Virus record (IMG/VR): IMGVR_UViG_3300045988_115146
DNA from: a virus
Strand: one strand, 5' to 3'
Length of the DNA stretch: 64,000 nt
A model generated the notes under the pieces. That model saw nothing but the letters and a program-made list of their open reading frames with translations. It was not told the origin of the DNA and did no database searches. The position numbers were made by a program, and so were the translations under genes. Positions within the stretch are counted from its first letter, which is position 1, and each line of letters begins with the position of its first letter. This document shows, one piece after another, positions 17,349-57,385 of this stretch.

Positions 17349-17425
17349 GGGCCCATAGCTCAGTTGGTAAGAGCAGCGGACTCATAATCCGAAGGTCGGG
17401 GGTTCAAGCCCCTCTGGGCCCACCA
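17349..17425 (+). tRNA. tRNA-Met (or Ile2) anticodon CAT, CCA encoded
   Basis: Cloverleaf folded by hand: acceptor GGGCCCA/TGGGCCC, D arm GCTC..GAGC, anticodon loop CTCATAA, T arm GGGGG-TTCAAGC-CCCTC, ACCA end. G1-C72 argues for an elongator type. Confidence 0.85.
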
Positions 17426-17524
17426 AAGATTTTCTCTTATTTTCTTATTTTGTGCGTGGACAATACAAACAGTCCTGGTAAATTCGAAGGTACTAGACAG
17501 TAGTGATACAGGCTAGTACCAATT

Positions 17525-17599
17525 ACGGGAGTAGCACAGTCAGGTTAGTGTACTTGCTTTGGGAGCAAGTGGTCGCAGGTTCGAATCCTGTCTCCCGTA
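17525..17599 (+). tRNA. tRNA-Pro anticodon TGG
   Basis: Acceptor ACGGGAG/CTCCCGT, anticodon stem CTTGC/GCAAG with loop TTTGGGA, T arm GCAGG-TTCGAAT-CCTGT. Confidence 0.85.
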
Positions 17600-17612
17600 C
17601 ATATTAGTAAAG

Positions 17613-17695
17613 GCTCGGATGGAGAAATAGGTAAACTCATCAGATTTAAGCTCTGACGGTCATTGACCTTGCGGGTTCGACTCCCGCTCCGAGTA
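17613..17695 (+). tRNA. tRNA-Leu anticodon TAA (class II, long variable arm)
   Basis: Acceptor GCTCGGA/TCCGAGT, anticodon stem TCAGA/TCTGA with loop TTTAAGC, variable arm GGTC-ATT-GACC, T arm GCGGG-TTCGACT-CCCGC. Confidence 0.8.
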
Positions 17696-17719
17696 CATAG
17701 TATCAAATACTCTTGTCTT

Positions 17720-18418
17720 ATGAATGATGTTATAATTACCATGGCTGGAAAGGGTACAAGAACAAATAAAGAAGTACCCAAACAATTCTTAAAAGTATCA
17801 CAAGATAAATACCTATTTGAAATCTCATTAGATAAATTTATACGTACTGGATGCTATCGTAAGATAGTTCTTGTTGTGAATCCAGAGTATGTAGAGTGGG
17901 TAAAAAATAGAATATCTAATAACTATCCAGGTAAATTAGGCAGATTAATCACAGTAATACCAGGTGGTGATACTGCACAACACTCGAGAATCTTAGGATT
18001 TGAAAGCTTATTAACAGATGAGGAATCACTTTGGCCAAATACAGTTACTTTCCATGATGGTGTAAGAGTTGGTTTCGATGAAAATCTACTAACATTCATG
18101 ATTAATAATTGTAGGTTTAATAGCACTGCATATGTACCGTATATTCCAGCAACTGGTACATTAAGATTAGATTCTGATAAGGTAGTATATACTAAGGATA
18201 AGTACATGAGGCTTCAGACTCCCATGGTATTTCCATTTTACCAATTCTATGGATGTTATAATAAGGCAAAAGATAAGGGTATAGAATACCAAACAGCTTC
18301 TGATTTGTATGAAGACAACAGTGGTTTAGTGAACTATGTAATGGGTAATAGATTGAACTTCAAGGTAACTTTCGCAGAAGATATTGATGTAGTAAGATTA
18401 TTATACAATCATGAATAA
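17720..18418 (+). CDS. IspD/TarI-family cytidylyltransferase (CDP-alcohol forming nucleotidyltransferase)
   Basis: N-terminal [23 protein letters not shown] matches the AGxGxR...PKQ(F/Y)L signature. IVLVVNP and [10 protein letters not shown] blocks. Start set to the ATG after tRNA-Leu. Confidence 0.7.
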
Positions 18419-19283
18419 TATGAGTTATATTAGTAATCATATCCATAATGGTCATCTAATAAGCAACCTTAGGAGAGAAGTATGGGATATAGAACTAGAT
18501 ATGTTAGATCTAGTAGTTAATATATGTGACAAGATAGGAGTAAAATATTATCTTGATGCAGGTACACTATTAGGTGCAGTTAGACACCAAGGATTCATAC
18601 CTTGGGATGATGATATCGATTTGGTAATGTTCAGAGATGAATATGATAAGTTTATATCATACTGTAGGGAAAATTTAGAATATCCATATTTCTTACAAGT
18701 ACCAGAAACTGATACTTCTATTTATCAACATGCAAAGATAAGGAGGAGTGATACAACAGCTATATTAGAAAGGGATCTAGAAGCTAATTGGGATTTTAAT
18801 CAAGGCATATTCATAGATATATTCCCATTAGATAGAGTTCCAGAAGATAAGGGGAAAAGGGAAAGATTTCTATATGAATTGCAATTAATTAAACTAGAAC
18901 TCTTCTTTTTAAAGAATAGGAGCTGGAAATTTGCTAATATTCCCCTTGAAAGGGAAAGAATGAATTACCTTAAAAACCTTTATGAAAAGAATAGGAAAAG
19001 GTATAATAACACTCAAGAGAATTGTTGGGCAACATTAGCTTTTCCTGAACATAACAATATCATAAAGAATATTGATTTTTACAAGAACCAATATCCGGAT
19101 GTATTCTTAACATTTGAAGGTAGAAATTTGAGAGTACCGAATATTTACCATGGAGTATTGGAAGACATATATGGAGAGGATTACTTAACTCCCAAGAAAT
19201 ATTCTGGATTACATGGTAGGATATTGGTGAATACTCATAAAACATATAAAAACAATATGGAAGACTTTCAAATATTGAAGTAG
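18411..19283 (+). CDS. LicD-family phosphotransferase (CDP-alcohol dependent, fukutin/LicD type)
   Basis: [36 protein letters not shown] is the hallmark LicD motif. 8-nt overlap with the cytidylyltransferase gene. Confidence 0.8.
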
Positions 19284-19403: not shown

Positions 19404-20972
19404 ATGGAGTCAAGATATGCCATAATAAAGAGTTTTTCACAGGTTAAGAAACTTGTGAAAGCTTGTTTGAAGACAGGTATAGCTTCAATAGACTATGAGA
19501 CTAATGCTGAAGGCATATACAATAAAACATTTAGACCAACAATTCTATCAGTAACTTTCCAGGTTGGTTCTGGAGTATCTATTCCATTATGTCATCATGA
19601 ATATGATAACCCTCATTGGAAAAAATGGCTTCTATACTTTGGTAGAAAAGTAGTTGAGAATCCAAAAGTAACTAAAGTAGGTTGGAATCTGAAGTTTGAC
19701 CTTCAGATATTCGAGTTGTATGGTATATATGTAAGAGGTACAGTACTTGATGGTATGTTAATGAAGTATCTCTTAAATGAAGAGAAACCAAATGACCTTA
19801 AATCAATGGTTCGTAGGTATTTACCAGAACACGGAGATTACGAAAAAGCTGATAAGTTTGATAAGATACCATGGAATAAAAAGCCACTGGAACCACTCTG
19901 CAAATATGGATGTCAAGATACCGATTATACCCTACGATTATCTATGTTCTTTGAGAACAAATTGATAGAAATAGGTATGTATCCATTATTAAGGCATCTG
20001 ATAATGCCAGCATCAAGAGTATTACAGCATGCAGAGAAAACTGGTTTATACCTTGATAGGAAATTCAATCAGGAATTACTTGAATCTTACAAGCCAAAGA
20101 TTGATCAAGCAACTTTAAATTGCTTGAATCTTCCCAGAGTTAAAAGATTCTCTAGATGGCTTATCCAAGAAAGAATAAGCAAATACATTTCTTCAATTGA
20201 AATGGAACTTGAAGACTTGGATTATAGTGATCCAAAAAATGCAAGGAAGATAGCTAGCAGGGAACAAAAAATATCTAACATAAGAGCTGGTGTATATACA
20301 ACCAAGAAAGAATTAGAATTAACCCGTGATATAAATCTTGGTAGTAAAGTAGACTTACCAATGTTGTTATATTCTGAAAAGGGGTTCAAATTCCCTATTA
20401 TAAAATATACGAAGGATAAGACTACAAATCGTGATACTGATAAGCCGAGTACTGATGAGGATACATTGGTAGAACTTCGGTTGTCAATTAAGAATCCCGA
20501 AAGTCCCAAAGCAATATTCTTGGATAATCTACTCAAGTTGAGAGGATTGAAGAAGATGTACACTACATATATAAAAGGGTGGCACGATAAAGTACAGGAT
20601 GATAATAAATTACATGGAAGATTTTTGATACATGGAACAACTAGCGGGAGATTGAGTTGCATAGGCGGAGATACAAAAGTATTAACTCAATATGGAGAAA
20701 TACCAATTATAGATATTAAGGATTGGATTGGTGAAGGATTATGTGCCATGACTAAAGATGGGTGGCAATTAATAGAAAACTTCATATATAAGGGTGTTGA
20801 TGATATGTATGAAGTAACACTTGAAGATGGTACTTCTATTCAATGTACTTTAGATCATAAATTTATAACTAATAAAGGTACTAAAAGATTAAGGGAAATT
20901 TACAATAAATACCGAAATACTATTGATTCTAAAATTAAACTTTTAAGATATGTCCCAGACTACGAACAATAG
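19404..20972 (+). CDS. Family A DNA polymerase, N-terminal fragment (3'-5' exonuclease + palm start) fused to split-intein N half
   Basis: Exo I SIDYET, Exo II WNLKFD, Exo III YGCQDTDY. Extein ends HGTTSGRLS at 20657. Then CIGGDTKVLT...TLDH... (104 aa, intein blocks A/B) and TAG. Confidence 0.85.
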   Translation: MESRYAIIKSFSQVKKLVKACLKTGIASIDYETNAEGIYNKTFRPTILSVTFQVGSGVSIPLCHHEYDNPHWKKWLLYFGRKVVENPKVTKVGWNLKFDLQIFELYGIYVRGTVLDGMLMKYLLNEEKPNDLKSMVRRYLPEHGDYEKADKFDKIPWNKKPLEPLCKYGCQDTDYTLRLSMFFENKLIEIGMYPLLRHLIMPASRVLQHAEKTGLYLDRKFNQELLESYKPKIDQATLNCLNLPRVKRFSRWLIQERISKYISSIEMELEDLDYSDPKNARKIASREQKISNIRAGVYTTKKELELTRDINLGSKVDLPMLLYSEKGFKFPIIKYTKDKTTNRDTDKPSTDEDTLVELRLSIKNPESPKAIFLDNLLKLRGLKKMYTTYIKGWHDKVQDDNKLHGRFLIHGTTSGRLSCIGGDTKVLTQYGEIPIIDIKDWIGEGLCAMTKDGWQLIENFIYKGVDDMYEVTLEDGTSIQCTLDHKFITNKGTKRLREIYNKYRNTIDSKIKLLRYVPDYEQ

Positions 20973-22004
20973 GCAAAAGGTATTCAAAGATAAATCTATC
21001 AACGGTCCAAGGAGAAAATTAAAGTTAATAGTAGAGGATGGTAAAAGATATATAAAGAAAGAAGATCTTTTACATTACTTCTTTCAAGAGAATTGGAATA
21101 TAGAAGACTTTAATTATCATTTTGGCATTGGTCATAGGATAGTGAGAGGTTCTCTATATAAATGGTTTACTAGGGAAGAAATAGAGGAATCTCATAGAAA
21201 GAAGATTGCTAATAAACAGATTGGTAGTAATAATTCTAATAGGATTAATTGGTATAAACCCCGTAAGCTTATACCTTTATTGGATTTAGAAGAAGCCGTT
21301 AAAAAATCTACTTGTAAACAGGATTTGAAGGAGAGACTACAATTAACTTCTTGGGAATTGTCACACATACAACAGTTCTATAACTTTAAACTACCAAATA
21401 GATCTCCTTTACTTAATACTAAACTACAGTATTCTCTTTCTAGATGTGATATAAAACTTTTATGTAAAGTTATTACTGGAATGGGATGGGAAGATGTATT
21501 TTTCTATAATACTCCTAAGGCTATCTATAAAATGGATTGTCTTATTTGGGAACTTAGGAAGATAAATCGTTCTTTGAGGAGAGCTTTTAGGAAACAGATA
21601 GTAGATAATGGTATTAAGTTTCCTACAAATTTGATAGAGTATAAATTTCACAAAGCTCTAGAAAAAATGGATATAGAGCATGAAATACAATATTATATAC
21701 CAGAACATAATATACATCTAGACTTTTTAATAAAAGGTCATTACAACTTGGAATTAGATGGAAATTTGCATGAAGAAGAAGCAGATAGTGGTAGAGACCG
21801 TATTCTCAAATCTCTTGGCTATAAAATTATAAGACTAGATTTAAAATCTCTAAATCTTACTAGATTCTCAAAAGAAAAGGAGGTAAGGAAATGTATAAAG
21901 AAATTGGTATTACCAAAGTTAAACCAATAGGTAAGAAAGGTGTATATGATTTATCCGTTATGAACTGTCATCAGTTTGTGGCTAATAATATCCTAAATCA
22001 TAAT
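20658..22004 (+). mobile_element. Split intein (IntN 20658-20969, IntC 21891-22004) with an embedded free-standing endonuclease gene
   Basis: Inserted in the invariant GRLS|S..PNLQ motif. 1347 nt (449 codons), so both polymerase halves share one frame. IntC ends VANNILNHN followed by Ser. Confidence 0.8.
20950..21930 (+). CDS. Free-standing homing endonuclease, Vsr/DUF559-like PD-(D/E)XK domain
   Basis: Different frame from the polymerase halves and overlaps both. C-terminus HEIQYYIPEHNIHLDFLIKGHYNLELDGNLHEEEADSGRDRILKSLGYKIIRLD matches the Vsr-like ..DF....l.iE.DG..H...D..Rd..L...G...iR pattern. Confidence 0.65.
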   Translation: MSQTTNNRQKVFKDKSINGPRRKLKLIVEDGKRYIKKEDLLHYFFQENWNIEDFNYHFGIGHRIVRGSLYKWFTREEIEESHRKKIANKQIGSNNSNRINWYKPRKLIPLLDLEEAVKKSTCKQDLKERLQLTSWELSHIQQFYNFKLPNRSPLLNTKLQYSLSRCDIKLLCKVITGMGWEDVFFYNTPKAIYKMDCLIWELRKINRSLRRAFRKQIVDNGIKFPTNLIEYKFHKALEKMDIEHEIQYYIPEHNIHLDFLIKGHYNLELDGNLHEEEADSGRDRILKSLGYKIIRLDLKSLNLTRFSKEKEVRKCIKKLVLPKLNQ

Positions 22005-23045
22005 TCTCAAGAACCAAACTTACAGCAAATCCCAAAGACTTCAGTAGACCCAAATATAAAGAAGCAATTAGTAGCCCCAGATGGTAAGTTGTACATGGCT
22101 CTTGACTACTCTCAAGCAGAGTTAAGAATCATGGCTCATCTGTCTGGGGATGAAACATATCTTGAGGCTTTTGCAAAAGGTCAGGATCCTCACCTTGCTA
22201 TTGCAGCAAAGAAGTATGGGGTATCATATGAGGAAGCATATAAAGCTTACAGTGATGAACAACACCCAGATCATAATCTTTGGAAGAACCGAAGAAAGCA
22301 GGCAAAACAGATTTGCTTCGGTATTATCTATGGTATTCAGAAGAAACTGCTTGCAGTTAAATTGTCAGATCCAAAAGCTGGTATTATTGTAACACCAGAT
22401 GAAGCTCAGCAGCAGTTAAATGAATTCTTCTATGAACATCCTAAGATTAAAAAGTTCATGATTCATCAAGAAAAGGTATTGATTAAGCATGGGTATATAA
22501 AATCTTTGTTCGGAAGAAAGAGAAGGTTACCTCAGGTATATTCCGATAATGAACAAGAAGCAGCATACGCAGTACGATTATCTGTTAATATGCCATGTCA
22601 ATCAGCAGCATCTGATATGAACTTATTTGCTTCAGTATTAAACTATTGGAAAATGAGACAAGGTAAGTTGCCATTTATGCAAGAGACTTGTAATGTTCAC
22701 GATGCTACCTACTATTTGGTGAGGCCAGAATATATAAATACATGGGTAGTACATGAAATATGGGAAACTTGTCGTAACCCTAATACAAAAGAATATTTTA
22801 ACTTTCAGATAGACGACGTCAATATGAGCATGGATTTTGTTATAGGACGTTCAATGGCAGAGGAATTACCATTTATACCCGGTTATGATTATAGGAAAAT
22901 GCTTAAACCAGATTTTAATCCAGATGAGTACTTAGAAGAACATCGTAAGTACAGAGGTATTGAAATAGAAGATTACCCTAAGTTGTATCCAGAAGAGATA
23001 GCTAGGAATAAAATGGAATTTGAGAAAAGGATATATGAAAGGTAA
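21891..23045 (+). CDS. Split-intein C half fused to family A DNA polymerase C-terminal fragment
   Basis: 38-aa IntC, then SQEPNLQQIP. Motif A LDYSQAELRIMAH, motif B RRKQAKQICFGIIYG, motif C NVHDATY. AAGGAGGT at 21877-21884 upstream of the ATG. Confidence 0.85.
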   Translation: MYKEIGITKVKPIGKKGVYDLSVMNCHQFVANNILNHNSQEPNLQQIPKTSVDPNIKKQLVAPDGKLYMALDYSQAELRIMAHLSGDETYLEAFAKGQDPHLAIAAKKYGVSYEEAYKAYSDEQHPDHNLWKNRRKQAKQICFGIIYGIQKKLLAVKLSDPKAGIIVTPDEAQQQLNEFFYEHPKIKKFMIHQEKVLIKHGYIKSLFGRKRRLPQVYSDNEQEAAYAVRLSVNMPCQSAASDMNLFASVLNYWKMRQGKLPFMQETCNVHDATYYLVRPEYINTWVVHEIWETCRNPNTKEYFNFQIDDVNMSMDFVIGRSMAEELPFIPGYDYRKMLKPDFNPDEYLEEHRKYRGIEIEDYPKLYPEEIARNKMEFEKRIYER

Positions 23046-23529
23046 TATACCATACTTTGATTGTTATCATGTTACAAGAAGTGGTGATGTATACTCCAAG
23101 TATAAAGACAAAGTTACTTGGAGGAAAATGGCTAAGAGAAAGAAGAATAATGGTTACATTATAGTAAGCTTAAGAAATAACGATGGGGTTAAGTATACAT
23201 TTAACATACATAGGTTAGTAGCTGAAACTTATATACCTAACCCAGATAATAAGCCATGTGTAGGTCATAAAGACAATAATAGGGAAAACAATACAGTAGA
23301 AAACTTATACTGGTGTACTCATAAAGAAAATACTAAACAATGTATAGATGATGGTAGATTTAATATACCAAGCCAAAAGTTAAATGATGAGTCTATAAAT
23401 AGTATGATAGAAGATTATGAAAGTGGTATGAGTAACATACAGATAAAGGCCAAATACAAAATAAGTATTATGACCATGTATAAATACTTCAACGAAAGAG
23501 GTGTTATATGGAAAAAAGTCAAAAGGTAG
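23020..23529 (+). CDS. Free-standing HNH homing endonuclease (NUMOD4 + HNH_3 type)
   Basis: YHVTRSGDVYSK...NGYIIVSL...IHRLVAETYIPNPDNKPCVGHKDNNRENNTVENLYWCTHKEN is a typical phage HNH_3 arrangement. Confidence 0.75.
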   Translation: MRKGYMKGNIPYFDCYHVTRSGDVYSKYKDKVTWRKMAKRKKNNGYIIVSLRNNDGVKYTFNIHRLVAETYIPNPDNKPCVGHKDNNRENNTVENLYWCTHKENTKQCIDDGRFNIPSQKLNDESINSMIEDYESGMSNIQIKAKYKISIMTMYKYFNERGVIWKKVKR

Positions 23530-25194: not shown

Positions 25195-26385
25195 ATGGCA
25201 AGAAAGGCAAAAGCTCCCAAGAAATCAGGGGGCAGGAAATTTAAGGTACCAACACAAAATGAGATACTCAAGAAGTATGGGTCATCTTTACAATTTAAAG
25301 CTAGTACCATAAATCATCATGGATTATGGATTCCATCTACTTTCTTTGCTCTCAATTATCAAATGGGTGGTGGTGTACCATTCGGTAAGATAATTGAAAT
25401 AATGGGTGAGGAATCATCTGGAAAATCACTGATAGCATATAACTTTGCTTATGCTACTCAACAACTAGGTGGTCATGTAATATGGGTAGATGCTGAACAA
25501 GCATGGATGAATTCATGGGCAGAAGAGAATGGATTGGATCCAGAAAGAGTAACAGTATTAAATGATACCCGTATAGAAACAATATCTGATGCAATAGCAG
25601 ACTTAGCAATATATTGGAGATCAAAGTTAGTGAATAATGAACCTATCATAGTTGTGATAGATTCAATAGCTGCTCTTGATTCAATAGAAGCCATAGATGC
25701 AAAGATGGCAGATGGTAAAGCCGAGATGGGTAACCGAGCTAAGCAGATATATAAGATGTTCAGAATAAGGAATGAATTATTCTATCGCTTAGGTGTAACT
25801 ATGGTGTGTATCAATCAATTGCGTAGTAAACTGGGAGCAGGATTTGGTCAAGATACTAACACAACTCCCGGAGGTGCTGCTCTTAAGTTTTATGCTTCAA
25901 TCAGGTTGGCTTTCTTTTCGGGTAAGACTCTAAAGATTAAGTATAAAGGTAAGGAAAGACGGGCAGGTAAGTATGTAACTATTCAGATGAAAAAGAACAA
26001 GGTATCTCCCCCAAGAGAAACCATATCTAAAGCCCCGATATATTTCAACCCAAAGTATCATGAGATTGGATTCGATAGATACTTCTGGTTAGAAGAATCT
26101 TTAGAAGATGCTGGTGTAATTGAAAAGCTTGGTGGAGGTACATACGTGTTCGAGGGTAATAAACTATGCCGTGGTGAAGATGCTTTCCATAGGTTGATAG
26201 AAGAAGATGGAGATCTTAGGAAAAAATTACTCAGGGCAGCAGGAATAAATACCATAGGAACTACTAAGCGTAAGCTAAAGAAGATTACACGAAATATGTT
26301 CCCTGTTGATGAAGATTTAGACTATGAATCTCAAATAGAATCAGATGATACAGAAGAAGATGAAATCATCCCAGACGAGGGGTAG
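25195..26385 (+). CDS. recA: RecA/UvsX-like recombinase
   Basis: GKIIEIMGEESSGKSLIAYNF (Walker A), VVIDSIAAL (Walker B), NQLRSKLGAGFG..TTPGG (L2-like loop). Confidence 0.85.
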   Translation: MARKAKAPKKSGGRKFKVPTQNEILKKYGSSLQFKASTINHHGLWIPSTFFALNYQMGGGVPFGKIIEIMGEESSGKSLIAYNFAYATQQLGGHVIWVDAEQAWMNSWAEENGLDPERVTVLNDTRIETISDAIADLAIYWRSKLVNNEPIIVVIDSIAALDSIEAIDAKMADGKAEMGNRAKQIYKMFRIRNELFYRLGVTMVCINQLRSKLGAGFGQDTNTTPGGAALKFYASIRLAFFSGKTLKIKYKGKERRAGKYVTIQMKKNKVSPPRETISKAPIYFNPKYHEIGFDRYFWLEESLEDAGVIEKLGGGTYVFEGNKLCRGEDAFHRLIEEDGDLRKKLLRAAGINTIGTTKRKLKKITRNMFPVDEDLDYESQIESDDTEEDEIIPDEG

Positions 26386-54862: not shown

Positions 54863-57385
54863 ATGGCAAGAAAGAAGACATTACTAGAAGGAGATACAAA
54901 TATTACACCAGAACAACTTAAGACCTTGGTCCGTGTGATGAAGGATCCATTCTTCTTTTCTACTTTCTGCTATGTTATCAACCCTGTGTTGGGTATGGTT
55001 AAGTTCTTGCTATATCCATTTCAGAAAGCAGTACTATACCAATTCATGCTGAACAGGTTCAATATCATCCTTAAATTTCGTCAGGCTGGTATTACAGAGT
55101 TGATATCCATGTATTGTCTCTGGTTAGCAATGTATCACCCAAACAAGAAGATAAACATCATCTCGATCAAAGATACTGTAGCAAAGAAGGTACTGAAGAA
55201 GATCAAGTTTATGTACAAGAATCTTCCTTCATATCTACAAGAACCAATTATAAACGGTCGTACTGGAGAATTTGGTTCTGTATCAACAATAGAATTTGCA
55301 AATGGCTCCATAATTGAGTCTATACCAACATCAGATCAAGCAGGTCGTTCTGAATCTTTGTCGTTGTTGGTAATTGATGAGGCAGCAATTGTAAGATGGG
55401 CTTCAACGATATGGGCATCGGCATTCCCCACATTGAGCTGTATATCAGGGAGTTACGAAATATTACTTACTAAAAATCTCTATCGGAAAAATATAGAAGG
55501 TAATAAAAAAGGTCTACAGGCTTTTCTTAAGCCTATAAAAGAATTAGCTCCAGATGAAATAGGAGTAAGAGATTTAAGAAAAGAGAAGTTATATACTCTA
55601 ACTCATACTGGAACTTGGAAACAAGTATTGGATGCTGTATATAAAGGAAAGCTTTTAACTTGGGAGGTAGAAGACAATAGAGGTAAAATTTTAGATTGTA
55701 CTCCTAAACACCGCTTATTAACTCCACAAGGCTGGAGGACAGTATCTGATATTGTTAAGTATGGCCTAAAAATAGTTCAGGTAGATACCAAATACGATTC
55801 TATAGGTAATACGATTTTAGTAAAACCACCAAAGAAAGTAGTATTCAAGCCATTGTTTACTTTTGGCAAGTTCAAATATCAAATAACTAACTTTGGTAAA
55901 GTATATAAAGTTGGTAGTAATGGTGAAAGGACTGAAGTAAGAATAAGAGTACACAAAGGATATAATACTCTTACACTATTCTCTAAGTTAGAGGGTGGTA
56001 CTAAGAATTGGAAAGTATCTAGATTAGTATATGAAACATTTATTGGTTCAGTACCAGATGGTATGGTAATTGACCATATCAATAATAATCCTCTTCAGGA
56101 TTGGGTAACTAATTTGAAGTGTGTAACCAATTCAGAGAATATAAAGAAGTCATATAATACTAATTTATCTCACGTTACCTCTTTATCTGGTTATCCGATA
56201 GAATTACATTCTAAGGTATTACACACATTAGATTTGAATCCTGGTAAGAGTGACCAAGAAGTTAAAGAAGTATTAGCTAAACAGGGATTAAATATAAGTA
56301 GGAAAAGTATAGGTAATATACGAAGAAATTCTAAAGTATATCTATCAAAATTAACCGTAAACCGAGAGTATGTAACAGACATATATGATATACATGTAGA
56401 AGGGGATCACTCATATATACTACCAACTTGTAACTTTGTAAATCATAACACTGGCGGTTCAGCTATCGTAAATAGCACGCCCTACGGAGTCGGGAACTTC
56501 TTCCACGGTGCTTGGGTAGATGCTATAGCTGGTGGTAATCCTCTTAATCCAATACGACTTTATTGGCAGATGCATCCAGATAGAGATCAGAAGTGGTATG
56601 AGGAGATGTCTACTGCTCTTGGTCCAAAGAGAACTGCTCAGGAGATTGATGGTGACTTCCTATCATCTGGTAATACAGTATTTGATTTAGTTGATATTAA
56701 GGCTATAGAAGAGTGCTTATCTGACTATCCCATTATCAATACACGTTTGAAAGGTCAGTATAAGGAATTCAATGAGCCTGATCCAAACAAAGAGTATTTC
56801 ATTGGTGGTGACTGTGCAACTGGTAGAGGTACTGACTACTCAGCTTTTACTTGTATGGATAGAGATGGAGAAGAGTCTGCAGTATACAAGGGTAGAATAC
56901 CTTTGAACAAATATGCTCGTTTACTTGGTGATATCGGAGAAAAGTATAACTTTGCTAAGCTAGCTCCAGAGACTAATGATGTTGGTATGGCTGTAACAAC
57001 TATACTCCAAGATGAAGGTTATCCAAACCTATACTTCTATACTAAATTGTTAAGGAAGAAACGTCACAGTCGTCCAGAAGAAGAGAAGTTCCCGGGTTGG
57101 TTAACAACCGCAAAGAATAGGTCAGTAATTGTAGAGAATCTTGAAAAGGATATAAGGGAAAACAATGTGGTAATTAAAGATCCGTTCTTTGTTCAAGAGG
57201 CTTATACCTTCATATATGATGGTGCAGGAAGACCCATTGCACGAGGTAAACATAGAATGAGTACCTCATCTATGGATATTGACTTAGAGGGTGAAACATA
57301 TTCCGATGACTCCATATTCGGTAAAGCCATAACAAATCACATCAGATGTCATAGTGCATCATCAACTGTGGTTATTCCTCAGTAG
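54863..57385 (+). CDS. terL: Terminase large subunit, interrupted by an intein
   Basis: FRQAGITE (Walker A position), LLVIDEAA (Walker B). After the intein, TGGSAIVNSTPYG (motif III), then a C-terminal nuclease-type domain (GGDCATGRGTDYSAF). Confidence 0.8.
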   Translation: MARKKTLLEGDTNITPEQLKTLVRVMKDPFFFSTFCYVINPVLGMVKFLLYPFQKAVLYQFMLNRFNIILKFRQAGITELISMYCLWLAMYHPNKKINIISIKDTVAKKVLKKIKFMYKNLPSYLQEPIINGRTGEFGSVSTIEFANGSIIESIPTSDQAGRSESLSLLVIDEAAIVRWASTIWASAFPTLSCISGSYEILLTKNLYRKNIEGNKKGLQAFLKPIKELAPDEIGVRDLRKEKLYTLTHTGTWKQVLDAVYKGKLLTWEVEDNRGKILDCTPKHRLLTPQGWRTVSDIVKYGLKIVQVDTKYDSIGNTILVKPPKKVVFKPLFTFGKFKYQITNFGKVYKVGSNGERTEVRIRVHKGYNTLTLFSKLEGGTKNWKVSRLVYETFIGSVPDGMVIDHINNNPLQDWVTNLKCVTNSENIKKSYNTNLSHVTSLSGYPIELHSKVLHTLDLNPGKSDQEVKEVLAKQGLNISRKSIGNIRRNSKVYLSKLTVNREYVTDIYDIHVEGDHSYILPTCNFVNHNTGGSAIVNSTPYGVGNFFHGAWVDAIAGGNPLNPIRLYWQMHPDRDQKWYEEMSTALGPKRTAQEIDGDFLSSGNTVFDLVDIKAIEECLSDYPIINTRLKGQYKEFNEPDPNKEYFIGGDCATGRGTDYSAFTCMDRDGEESAVYKGRIPLNKYARLLGDIGEKYNFAKLAPETNDVGMAVTTILQDEGYPNLYFYTKLLRKKRHSRPEEEKFPGWLTTAKNRSVIVENLEKDIRENNVVIKDPFFVQEAYTFIYDGAGRPIARGKHRMSTSSMDIDLEGETYSDDSIFGKAITNHIRCHSASSTVVIPQ
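55439..56449 (+). mobile_element. Intein (337 aa) with an internal HNH endonuclease domain
   Basis: Starts CISGSYEILL after AFPTLS. Block B TPKH. HNH_3-like VIDHINNNPLQDWVTNLKCVTNSEN. Ends DHSYILPTCNFVNHN followed by Thr. Confidence 0.8.

Follow-up and report, generated by a model that had tools for sequence, protein, structure and literature searches.

The window analysed here is a 64-kb stretch of virus DNA (IMG/VR record IMGVR_UViG_3300045988_115146), in which polA, the gene for a family-A DNA polymerase, lay in two pieces, with one half of an intein at each broken end and the gene for a putative homing endonuclease between them (Table 1; all window coordinates are 1-based on the shown strand). 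The interruption comprised 1347 nucleotides (nt; 20658-22004), or 449 codons, left the two extein parts in one shared frame, and fell between two adjacent Ser codons within the motif TSGRLS/SQEPNLQQIP (a slash marks a breakpoint or splice junction throughout). The upstream open reading frame (ORF), the N-fragment (19404-20972), encoded 522 amino acids (aa), of which 418 were extein, ending in HGTTSGRLS, and 104 the N-terminal intein half (IntN). The downstream ORF, the C-fragment (21891-23045), encoded 384 aa, made up of the 38-aa C-terminal intein half (IntC) and 346 aa of extein. All three ORFs were co-directional on the + strand, and that of the endonuclease overlapped the IntN ORF by 23 nt and the IntC ORF by 40 nt. 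Within the N-fragment, the codon for intein Cys1 lay at 20658-20660, those for block B (TLDH) at 20847-20858 and the TAG stop at 20970-20972.

Table 1. Features of the interrupted polA locus in the 64-kb window.
Feature	Position	Strand	Basis or remark
PolA N-extein, 418 aa	19404..20657	+	3'-5' exonuclease domain and start of polymerase domain; ends ...LIHGTTSGRLS
IntN, 104 aa, begins CIGGDTKVLT	20658..20969	+	Full-length match of joined halves to solved inteins
Putative homing endonuclease gene, free-standing, 326 aa	20950..21930	+ (+1 frame relative to polA)	Homologue family, dN/dS, AlphaFold2 (AF2) model
Predicted EDxHD/Vsr-like (DUF559) nuclease domain, ~aa 226-300	21625..21849	+	Pfam, PDB fold match, invariant columns
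Shine-Dalgarno-like AAGGAGGT	21877..21884	+	Inside endonuclease coding sequence, codons K-E-V; function doubtful
IntC, 38 aa, MYKEIG...NNILNHN	21891..22004	+	His-Asn end at 21999-22004
PolA C-extein, 346 aa and stop	22005..23045	+	Ser+1 (22005-22007), then QEPNLQQIP

The two extein fragments read as consecutive parts of one polymerase. Pfam DNA_pol_A_exo1 matched the N-extein (E = 1.5e-19) and DNA_pol_A the C-extein (E = 1.8e-50), with the N-fragment matching DNA_pol_A up to profile position 123 and the C-fragment taking up the match at 123; PHROG 17 likewise stopped and restarted at position 977 across the break. An intact 764-aa PolA allele was present in L002 and in 69 IMG/VR loci (L-numbers denote the related loci compared; L001 is MT121964.1 and L007/L023 is IMGVR_UViG_3300045988_152762). 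An earlier note on this DNA had placed the break inside the T(G)RLSS-xxPNLQNIP motif, where the profiles indeed resume at the same position, and its coordinates, ORF lengths, overlaps, frame relationship and 1347-nt insert were all reproduced from the ORF listing and by direct reading.

When joined and searched as a single sequence, IntN and IntC gave a full-length match to solved inteins, including the DnaB mini-intein 4o1r (E = 8.5e-9) and likewise the DnaE and gp41-1 inteins. A profile built from eight lineages matched the Ssp DnaB mini-intein 1mi8 (E = 7.8e-13), gp41-1 (6qaz, E = 2.3e-10), DnaE split inteins (E of ~1e-10), NrdJ-1 (8ubs, E = 9e-4) and DnaX, and the matches to 1mi8, 7cfv, 7qil, 2keq and 6qaz ran over positions 2-143. 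The split point aligned with the linker that stands in mini-inteins in place of an endonuclease domain; this is the canonical split site. The signature of a class-1 intein was present in the form of Cys1, the block-B TxxH, a terminal His-Asn and Ser at +1, and C1, T64-L65-D66-H67, H141, N142 and S143 (the +1 Ser) were invariant in the eight lineages, whose intein sequences were otherwise just 56-70% identical. IntC was exactly 38 aa long with a Met start in every lineage examined, and IntN was 98-110 aa long. All three parts of the cassette are under purifying selection, with ratios of nonsynonymous to synonymous substitution (dN/dS; Nei-Gojobori, between four lineages) of 0.25-0.53 for IntN, 0.15-0.23 for IntC and 0.12-0.23 for the endonuclease.

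The conserved residues also bear on whether a peptide bond forms between the fragments at all. The intein halves could serve solely as high-affinity dimerization modules through which the PolA fragments assemble non-covalently into a heterodimeric polymerase; there is precedent in the NrdA of phage Aeh1, which is reported to be split by a mobile endonuclease and reassembled without splicing (PMC3045599). However, the residues of the splicing chemistry (Cys1, block-B Thr and His, penultimate His, Asn and Ser+1) were invariant in the eight lineages, the Aeh1 NrdA case has no intein, and an unspliced PolA would have ~140 additional residues in its active-site region, within its most conserved motif. 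Because the chemistry residues are conserved and the break falls in that motif, we regard non-covalent assembly as unlikely.

The 326-aa ORF between the halves had a modest match to Pfam DUF559 (E = 5.7e-5, aa 258-297) and matched no PHROG family. A search of 5.8 billion proteins returned 37 cluster representatives homologous to it, and 44 when a profile was used; these were mostly 305-330 aa long, aligned from a common Met start to the end, and were 39-99% identical. An AF2 model built with the homologue alignment had a mean pLDDT (predicted score of the local distance difference test) of 82, reaching 86-96 in the C-terminal alpha/beta domain, and its top Foldseek matches in the PDB were 3r3p_B and 3r3p_A, the catalytic domain of the homing endonuclease I-Bth0305I (probability 1.00, target template-modelling score 0.62-0.64, 95-97 aligned columns, E of ~2e-3). 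Against PDB sequences, single-sequence and whole-protein-profile searches found nothing significant; a profile confined to the nuclease domain matched 3hrl (E = 0.0026), which is a DUF559 protein, and 3r3p (E = 0.013). Residues E230, D258, E268, D270, H274, D279, R282 and D283 were invariant in an alignment of 27 sequences, and the order of E230, D258, E268/D270, H274 and D283 parallels that of E170, D196, H213 and D222 in I-Bth0305I, with similar spacing (D258 to H274, 16 residues, and H274 to D283, 9; in I-Bth0305I, D196 to H213, 17, and H213 to D222, 9). Sequence and model point to the C-terminal domain being an EDxHD (Vsr-like) nuclease, with cleavage activity predicted.

The N-terminal ~225 aa of the endonuclease were better conserved than the nuclease domain and mostly helical in the model, and aa 1-225 were without a Pfam or PHROG family match and without a sequence match to I-Bth0305I. 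By analogy, this region is presumably the DNA-recognition part of the protein. A stretch reading SHRKKIANKQxGxNNSN resembles NUMOD3 motifs, though no Pfam NUMOD model matched it, and we treat it as a lead only. A profile search for remoter relatives in other host genes recovered the same tight family only, with PolA as the context in nine of nine cases.

This arrangement was not peculiar to one assembly. The same three ORFs were found on five IMG/VR contigs whose identity to the window across the polA locus was 91-99.5%, and in all nine lineages examined the endonuclease gene (40-99% identity) lay between the PolA N- and C-fragments on syntenic contigs, in a shared neighbourhood of thymidylate synthase and PolA followed, in most, by Cpn10, gp32 and RecA. 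The diverged lineages with the cassette were represented by L008, L010-12, L013-16, L075, L097-98, L099-100, L101, L102 and L103. In every case the endonuclease was in the +1 frame, and its overlaps with the flanking ORFs varied between lineages (8-23 nt and 22-46 nt).

An alternative is that the insert is a contiguous intein with a nested endonuclease that splices in cis, its apparent breakage due either to sequencing or assembly errors or to programmed +1/-1 frameshifts within the overlaps. Since the endonuclease ORF overlaps both halves, two frame changes would suffice, and a 2025 survey of actinobacteriophages proposes that such elements shift into frame via indels. Against this, the same +1 offset was kept throughout the five near-identical assemblies and the eight diverged lineages while overlap lengths differed among them, the overlap sequences were not conserved and contained no slippery heptamer, the endonuclease has its own conserved Met start, and the Met of IntC always lies 38 residues before the junction. 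With the recurring +1 layout, the fixed 38-aa IntC and the variable overlaps, sequencing error is ruled out and a programmed frameshift is very improbable; the recurrence of the layout in the five assemblies and eight further lineages likewise excludes a pair of compensating indels that would restore a single intein, which the earlier note had named as a way in which its reading could fail. The polA frame through the insert also contained 43 stop codons of three kinds (27 TAA, 13 TAG and 3 TGA), and no suppressor tRNA was found in the window, whose only tRNAs were tRNA-Met, tRNA-Pro and tRNA-Leu. With these in-frame stops and the conserved three-ORF layout, we rejected the contiguous cis-splicing intein, to which we would give hardly any weight. 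Read-through or recoding of the TAG stop was ruled out separately, as there was no suppressor tRNA and TAA and TGA stops followed further along the same frame. The three tRNA genes (Met-CAT, Pro-TGG and Leu-TAA) formed a cluster at 17349-17696, upstream of the replication module.

Group I introns are another home of EDxHD endonucleases, I-Bth0305I in a phage recA being an example, so the interruption might have been an intron of group I or II that harbours the endonuclease ORF and is removed before translation. No Rfam family matched 20400-22300 on either strand, even at E <= 1, which speaks against a group I or II intron, and the sequences next to the exteins encode conserved in-frame intein blocks for which an intron would have no need. 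The chance that the insert is an intron seems to us negligible.

Occupied and empty versions of the site were surveyed in 79 complete PolA loci, from 80 fetched of 377 IMG/VR PolA hits: 69 had an empty site, seven carried the split intein with the endonuclease, and three carried a different, contiguous HNH intein. GenBank MT836181.1 is an intein-less relative with a 764-aa PolA reading GRLSSSEPNLQQIP, and in L018 the empty-site junction runs from GGTAGATTATCA directly into TCTCAAGAACCAAAC; viewed as a cleavage substrate, the empty L018 allele around the site has ACAAGCGGTAGATTATCA to the left and TCTCAAGAACCAAACTTACAG to the right. L018, L021 and L024 were ~98% identical in nucleotide sequence to the window across the locus and its flanks, yet had empty sites, and L022, which has the cassette, was 99.2% identical to the empty L018 upstream, to ~5 nt from the site. 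In six of the seven cassette alleles TTG AGT (Leu-Ser) directly preceded the intein, whereas the nearest empty relatives had the synonymous TTA TCA, and TTGAGT stood before the site in none of the 69 empty alleles; this linkage to the cassette fits either co-conversion or target-site immunity.

Comparison of cassette and flanks indicated recent mobility, as the cassettes of the window and L004 were 98-100% identical and thus far more alike than their flanks (85-96% on the N side and 68-91% on the C side), with the first mismatch 15 nt beyond the 3' splice junction. Between the window and L010, the exteins had 91-94% protein identity, the intein halves 55-58% and the endonuclease 53%, so that cassette and host gene have different histories, as homing would predict. 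The N-extein of the window (19404-20657) formed a ~1.2-kb block with ~75 substitutions relative to L018, L021, L022 and L028, which are otherwise near-identical to it, and the C-extein and downstream DNA were almost identical to the same loci. A candidate co-conversion tract on the N side, considered for the window against its empty relatives, was discarded because this divergent block was seen against cassette-bearing and empty relatives alike and so was not linked to the cassette; the clear signals were those of the L004 comparison and of the codons at the junction.

Decay of the endonuclease between intact intein halves was found twice. In L007/L023, one of the five near-identical contigs, a 1-bp deletion truncated the endonuclease alone, to 241 aa, and in L103 (3501-3986) an in-frame internal deletion left a 161-aa remnant. 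The homing cycle predicts such decay once a split intein has become indispensable. A decaying endonuclease could also be expected if polA itself were a dead pseudogene disrupted by a selfish nuclease gene, with the phage relying on another polymerase, and since just 64 kb of the genome is visible, a second polymerase could lie outside the window. Both extein fragments are intact and strongly constrained, however (dN/dS of 0.03-0.04 between the window and L010), and the intein halves are under purifying selection too. Cassette-bearing alleles also occurred in many independent assemblies (clusters P0001, P0018 and P0031 hold 256, 434 and 184 member sequences) on contigs that reach up to 85 kb, and none of ten large ORFs scanned outside the locus was a polymerase. 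We therefore think it very improbable that polA is dead.

A second, unrelated intein was found close to the same site. In MT121964.1, a phage 91% identical to that of the window, a contiguous 328-aa intein (L001, 4234-5217) was inserted seven codons upstream, at LIHG/C...SN/TTSGRLS, and the same intein was present in L017, L019 and L020; these phages are ~91-99% identical to the window. It formed a single in-frame ORF with HNH_3, NUMOD4 and HTH domains and had ~31-40% identity to the split intein. Two unrelated inteins compete for one PolA motif. The two were never found together in the 79 loci.

We consider it highly probable, at roughly 85%, that the locus is a 'fractured' gene for a family-A DNA polymerase, in which a split intein flanks a free-standing homing endonuclease, the polymerase is restored by trans-splicing, and the cassette spreads by homing. 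The structure described by the earlier note under that term was borne out: the halves, recognized there by the CIGGDTKVLT start and block B TLDH and now confirmed by the matches to solved inteins and the invariant catalytic residues, have intact catalytic blocks and break the gene at one exact point, and the same-strand gene between them does end in a Vsr/DUF559-type nuclease domain, as the DUF559 match and the I-Bth0305I fold indicate. Under this reading, the three ORFs would be co-transcribed (no terminator-like site was found on the + strand within the insert), and the two polymerase fragments and the endonuclease would each be translated separately. IntN and IntC would then associate and carry out class-1 protein trans-splicing, through an N-S acyl shift at Cys1, transesterification to Ser+1, Asn cyclization and an O-N shift, to yield a seamless 764-aa PolA with the junction ...GRLS-SQEPNLQQIP. 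During co-infection, the endonuclease would cut intein-less polA alleles, and recombinational repair would then copy the cassette in full into the empty site, together with short stretches of co-converted flank. The intein halves would persist even beside a decaying endonuclease because their loss, once split, would kill the polymerase.

Several observations weigh against this reading or limit it. Trans-splicing, endonuclease activity and the endonuclease target site are all things that we infer. The AF2 model of the joined intein halves, made from a single sequence without an alignment, failed (pLDDT 36), so that their assignment to the HINT fold is made by sequence homology only. For the endonuclease, neither the fold match to 3r3p (E = 2e-3) nor the profile match (E = 0.013) carries much weight by itself, and the two convince only when taken together. 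These phages are mosaic in general, and ordinary recombination among them may account for part of the discordance between cassette and flanks; the divergent N-extein block of the window has the look of a separate recombination event with its end at or close to the intein site. Finally, the reading requires that the endonuclease and the C-fragment start translation within ORFs that begin upstream of them, in hosts from a group without use of Shine-Dalgarno (SD) sequences.

Bacteria of the phylum Bacteroidetes make little use of SD pairing. The 8-mer AAGGAGGT stood 6 nt before the C-fragment ATG (21891), and the C-fragment was the only one of 63 ORFs of >=120 aa in the window with GGAGG or AGGAG at -20 to -4 (17 nt). 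The earlier note had read this as support for independent translation of the C-fragment. The position and singularity of the motif hold, but it was neither conserved nor enriched: the 8-mer occurred twice in the window against 2.9 occurrences expected by chance, and it was kept in two of eight cassette lineages (the window and L008), the six others having an A-rich sequence such as TAAAGATATAAG in its place. On these grounds the idea that an SD sequence marks the element was rejected, and in a probable Bacteroides phage the motif is weak evidence for independent initiation of the C-fragment. A sigma-70 promoter scan returned 22 sites against 23.8 expected, using a model unsuited to Bacteroides-type promoters.

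Because the three ORFs overlap without a spacer and the frame offset is fixed across endonucleases that are 40-99% identical, the split may also have been co-opted, with the ORFs acting as a unit coupled in translation by which the stoichiometry or the timing of polymerase assembly is set, and with trans-splicing as a regulatory step; we give this a small chance. The N-fragment, which contains the complete 3'-5' exonuclease domain, might then be active before splicing, or splicing might be conditional. If true, trans-splicing would regulate replication in a very common gut phage family.

The window probably derives from a gut phage of Bacteroides and is similar to the 'Flandersviridae' of Benler et al. 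2021, for which Bacteroides and Parabacteroides are the reported hosts. The resemblance lies in contigs of ~75-86 kb, a DnaB-type helicase together with PolA, and a LicD insertion. In the window, an ORF for a LicD-family nucleotidyltransferase (18411-19283; Pfam LicD, E = 4.6e-39) lay directly upstream of polA, and PMC8008677 reports that some gut phages of the 'Flandersviridae' have licD inserted into their replication module.

Other mobile elements were seen in and around the locus. Overlapping the end of polA, a free-standing ORF of 169 aa (23020-23529) encoded an HNH_3 and HTH_7 endonuclease; it was present in L001, L002, L011 and L012 and absent in L008 and L013-16, and this patchy presence makes it look like a third mobile nuclease at the locus. 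An 840-aa ORF at 54863-57385, assigned by eye as terminase large subunit-like with no family match, contained a 337-aa contiguous intein, in frame and with an HNH_3 endonuclease domain (~55439-56449; FPTLS/CISGS...FVNHN/TGGS), so that the window holds two inteins of different architecture. In L097/L098 (4433-7963) and L103 (3956-6139), PolA C-fragments of 727 to >1177 aa included, downstream of the split intein, one or more additional contiguous inteins (Intein_splicing and LAGLIDADG_3, and a possible PT-HINT). RecA in L014 and L015 (from 8270) was 738 aa long with an insertion matching Intein_splicing and LAGLIDADG_2; the RecA of the window (25195-26385, 396 aa) was intein-free.

The fractured-gene arrangement is already known; it has not been reported before in PolA or in such phages. 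A literature search for 'PolA intein' returned no papers, although contiguous inteins are on record for bacterial DNA polymerase I (PMC4760082). For a specialist this is a neat and useful example and not a surprising one, its value lying in the allelic series and the set of diverged split inteins. It extends the arrangement to a ninth host enzyme, a family-A replicative polymerase, and to common human-gut phages. The series found in near-identical genomes, from empty site through cassette and decaying endonuclease to a competing intein seven codons away, is a natural one suited to tests of homing-cycle and gene-breaking models. The system also provides at least eight pairs of diverged, orthologous split-intein halves with Cys1 and Ser+1 (~100 and 38 aa), which are relatives of the very fast inteins gp41-1 and NrdJ-1 and could find a place in protein-engineering toolkits. 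In the annotation of gut viromes, a split polA ORF should be taken neither for a pseudogene nor for a sign that the genome is incomplete.

Fractured genes, such as those with the gp41-1, NrdJ-1 and IMPDH-1 inteins, were reported by Dassa, London, Stoddard, Schueler-Furman and Pietrokovski (2009, Nucleic Acids Research 37:2560; PMC2677866) in eight types of host enzyme: gp41, IMPDH, DnaE, NrdA, NrdJ, ligase, terminase and one unknown. In half of their loci the nuclease was of the Vsr-like type, with IntN of 88-105 aa and IntC of 33-54 aa. The earlier note had cited this report accurately, as comparison with the paper showed, and had called the present locus a match; the arrangement is the same, but PolA is not among the eight host enzymes, and the case therefore extends the report. 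Every feature that defines those fractured genes at the level of sequence was found here. As there, the gene of a phage DNA-metabolism enzyme is broken at one point, the half sizes (104 and 38 aa) lie within the reported ranges, and the joined halves match the solved gp41-1 and NrdJ-1 inteins. The original examples came from marine and freshwater cyanophage-like sequences in ocean and lake metagenomes, whereas ours come from human-gut phages; spacers of 27-51 nt were reported there, whereas here there is none and the endonuclease ORF overlaps both halves in every lineage; and most of the originals were fragments, whereas many complete alleles (empty, with cassette, or with a decayed endonuclease) are available here.

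EDxHD Vsr-like homing endonucleases were first predicted in fractured genes, and their prototype is I-Bth0305I (Taylor et al. 2011, PMC3239194; PDB 3R3P); according to a 2025 survey, Vsr-like endonucleases in split inteins have been reported by Dassa et al. only. The endonuclease of the window resembles I-Bth0305I in its C-terminal catalytic fold, in the order and spacing of acidic and His residues and in being a two-part protein, with a catalytic-domain identity of just 16-18%, and differs in lying between split-intein halves where I-Bth0305I lies in a group I intron of recA.

Two further systems join a replicative polymerase from pieces. Like the cyanobacterial DnaE split inteins (Ssp, Npu), the PolA intein is a natural class-1 intein split at the canonical site, with similar half sizes and homologous sequence. 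Those inteins assemble a replicative polymerase subunit by trans-splicing, but their halves are at distant loci with no endonuclease between them. DnaE is a family-C polymerase, and its +1 residue is Cys where that of PolA is Ser. The second system is that of the phage family-B polymerases with a natural split intein, Aes123 PolB1 and CP21 PolB1 (PMC11923092, PMC12707363), in which, as proposed here, a phage replicative polymerase made in two pieces is joined by a natural split intein; they belong to family B, with cysteine-less inteins at another insertion site, whereas the polymerase of the window belongs to family A and its intein begins with Cys1.

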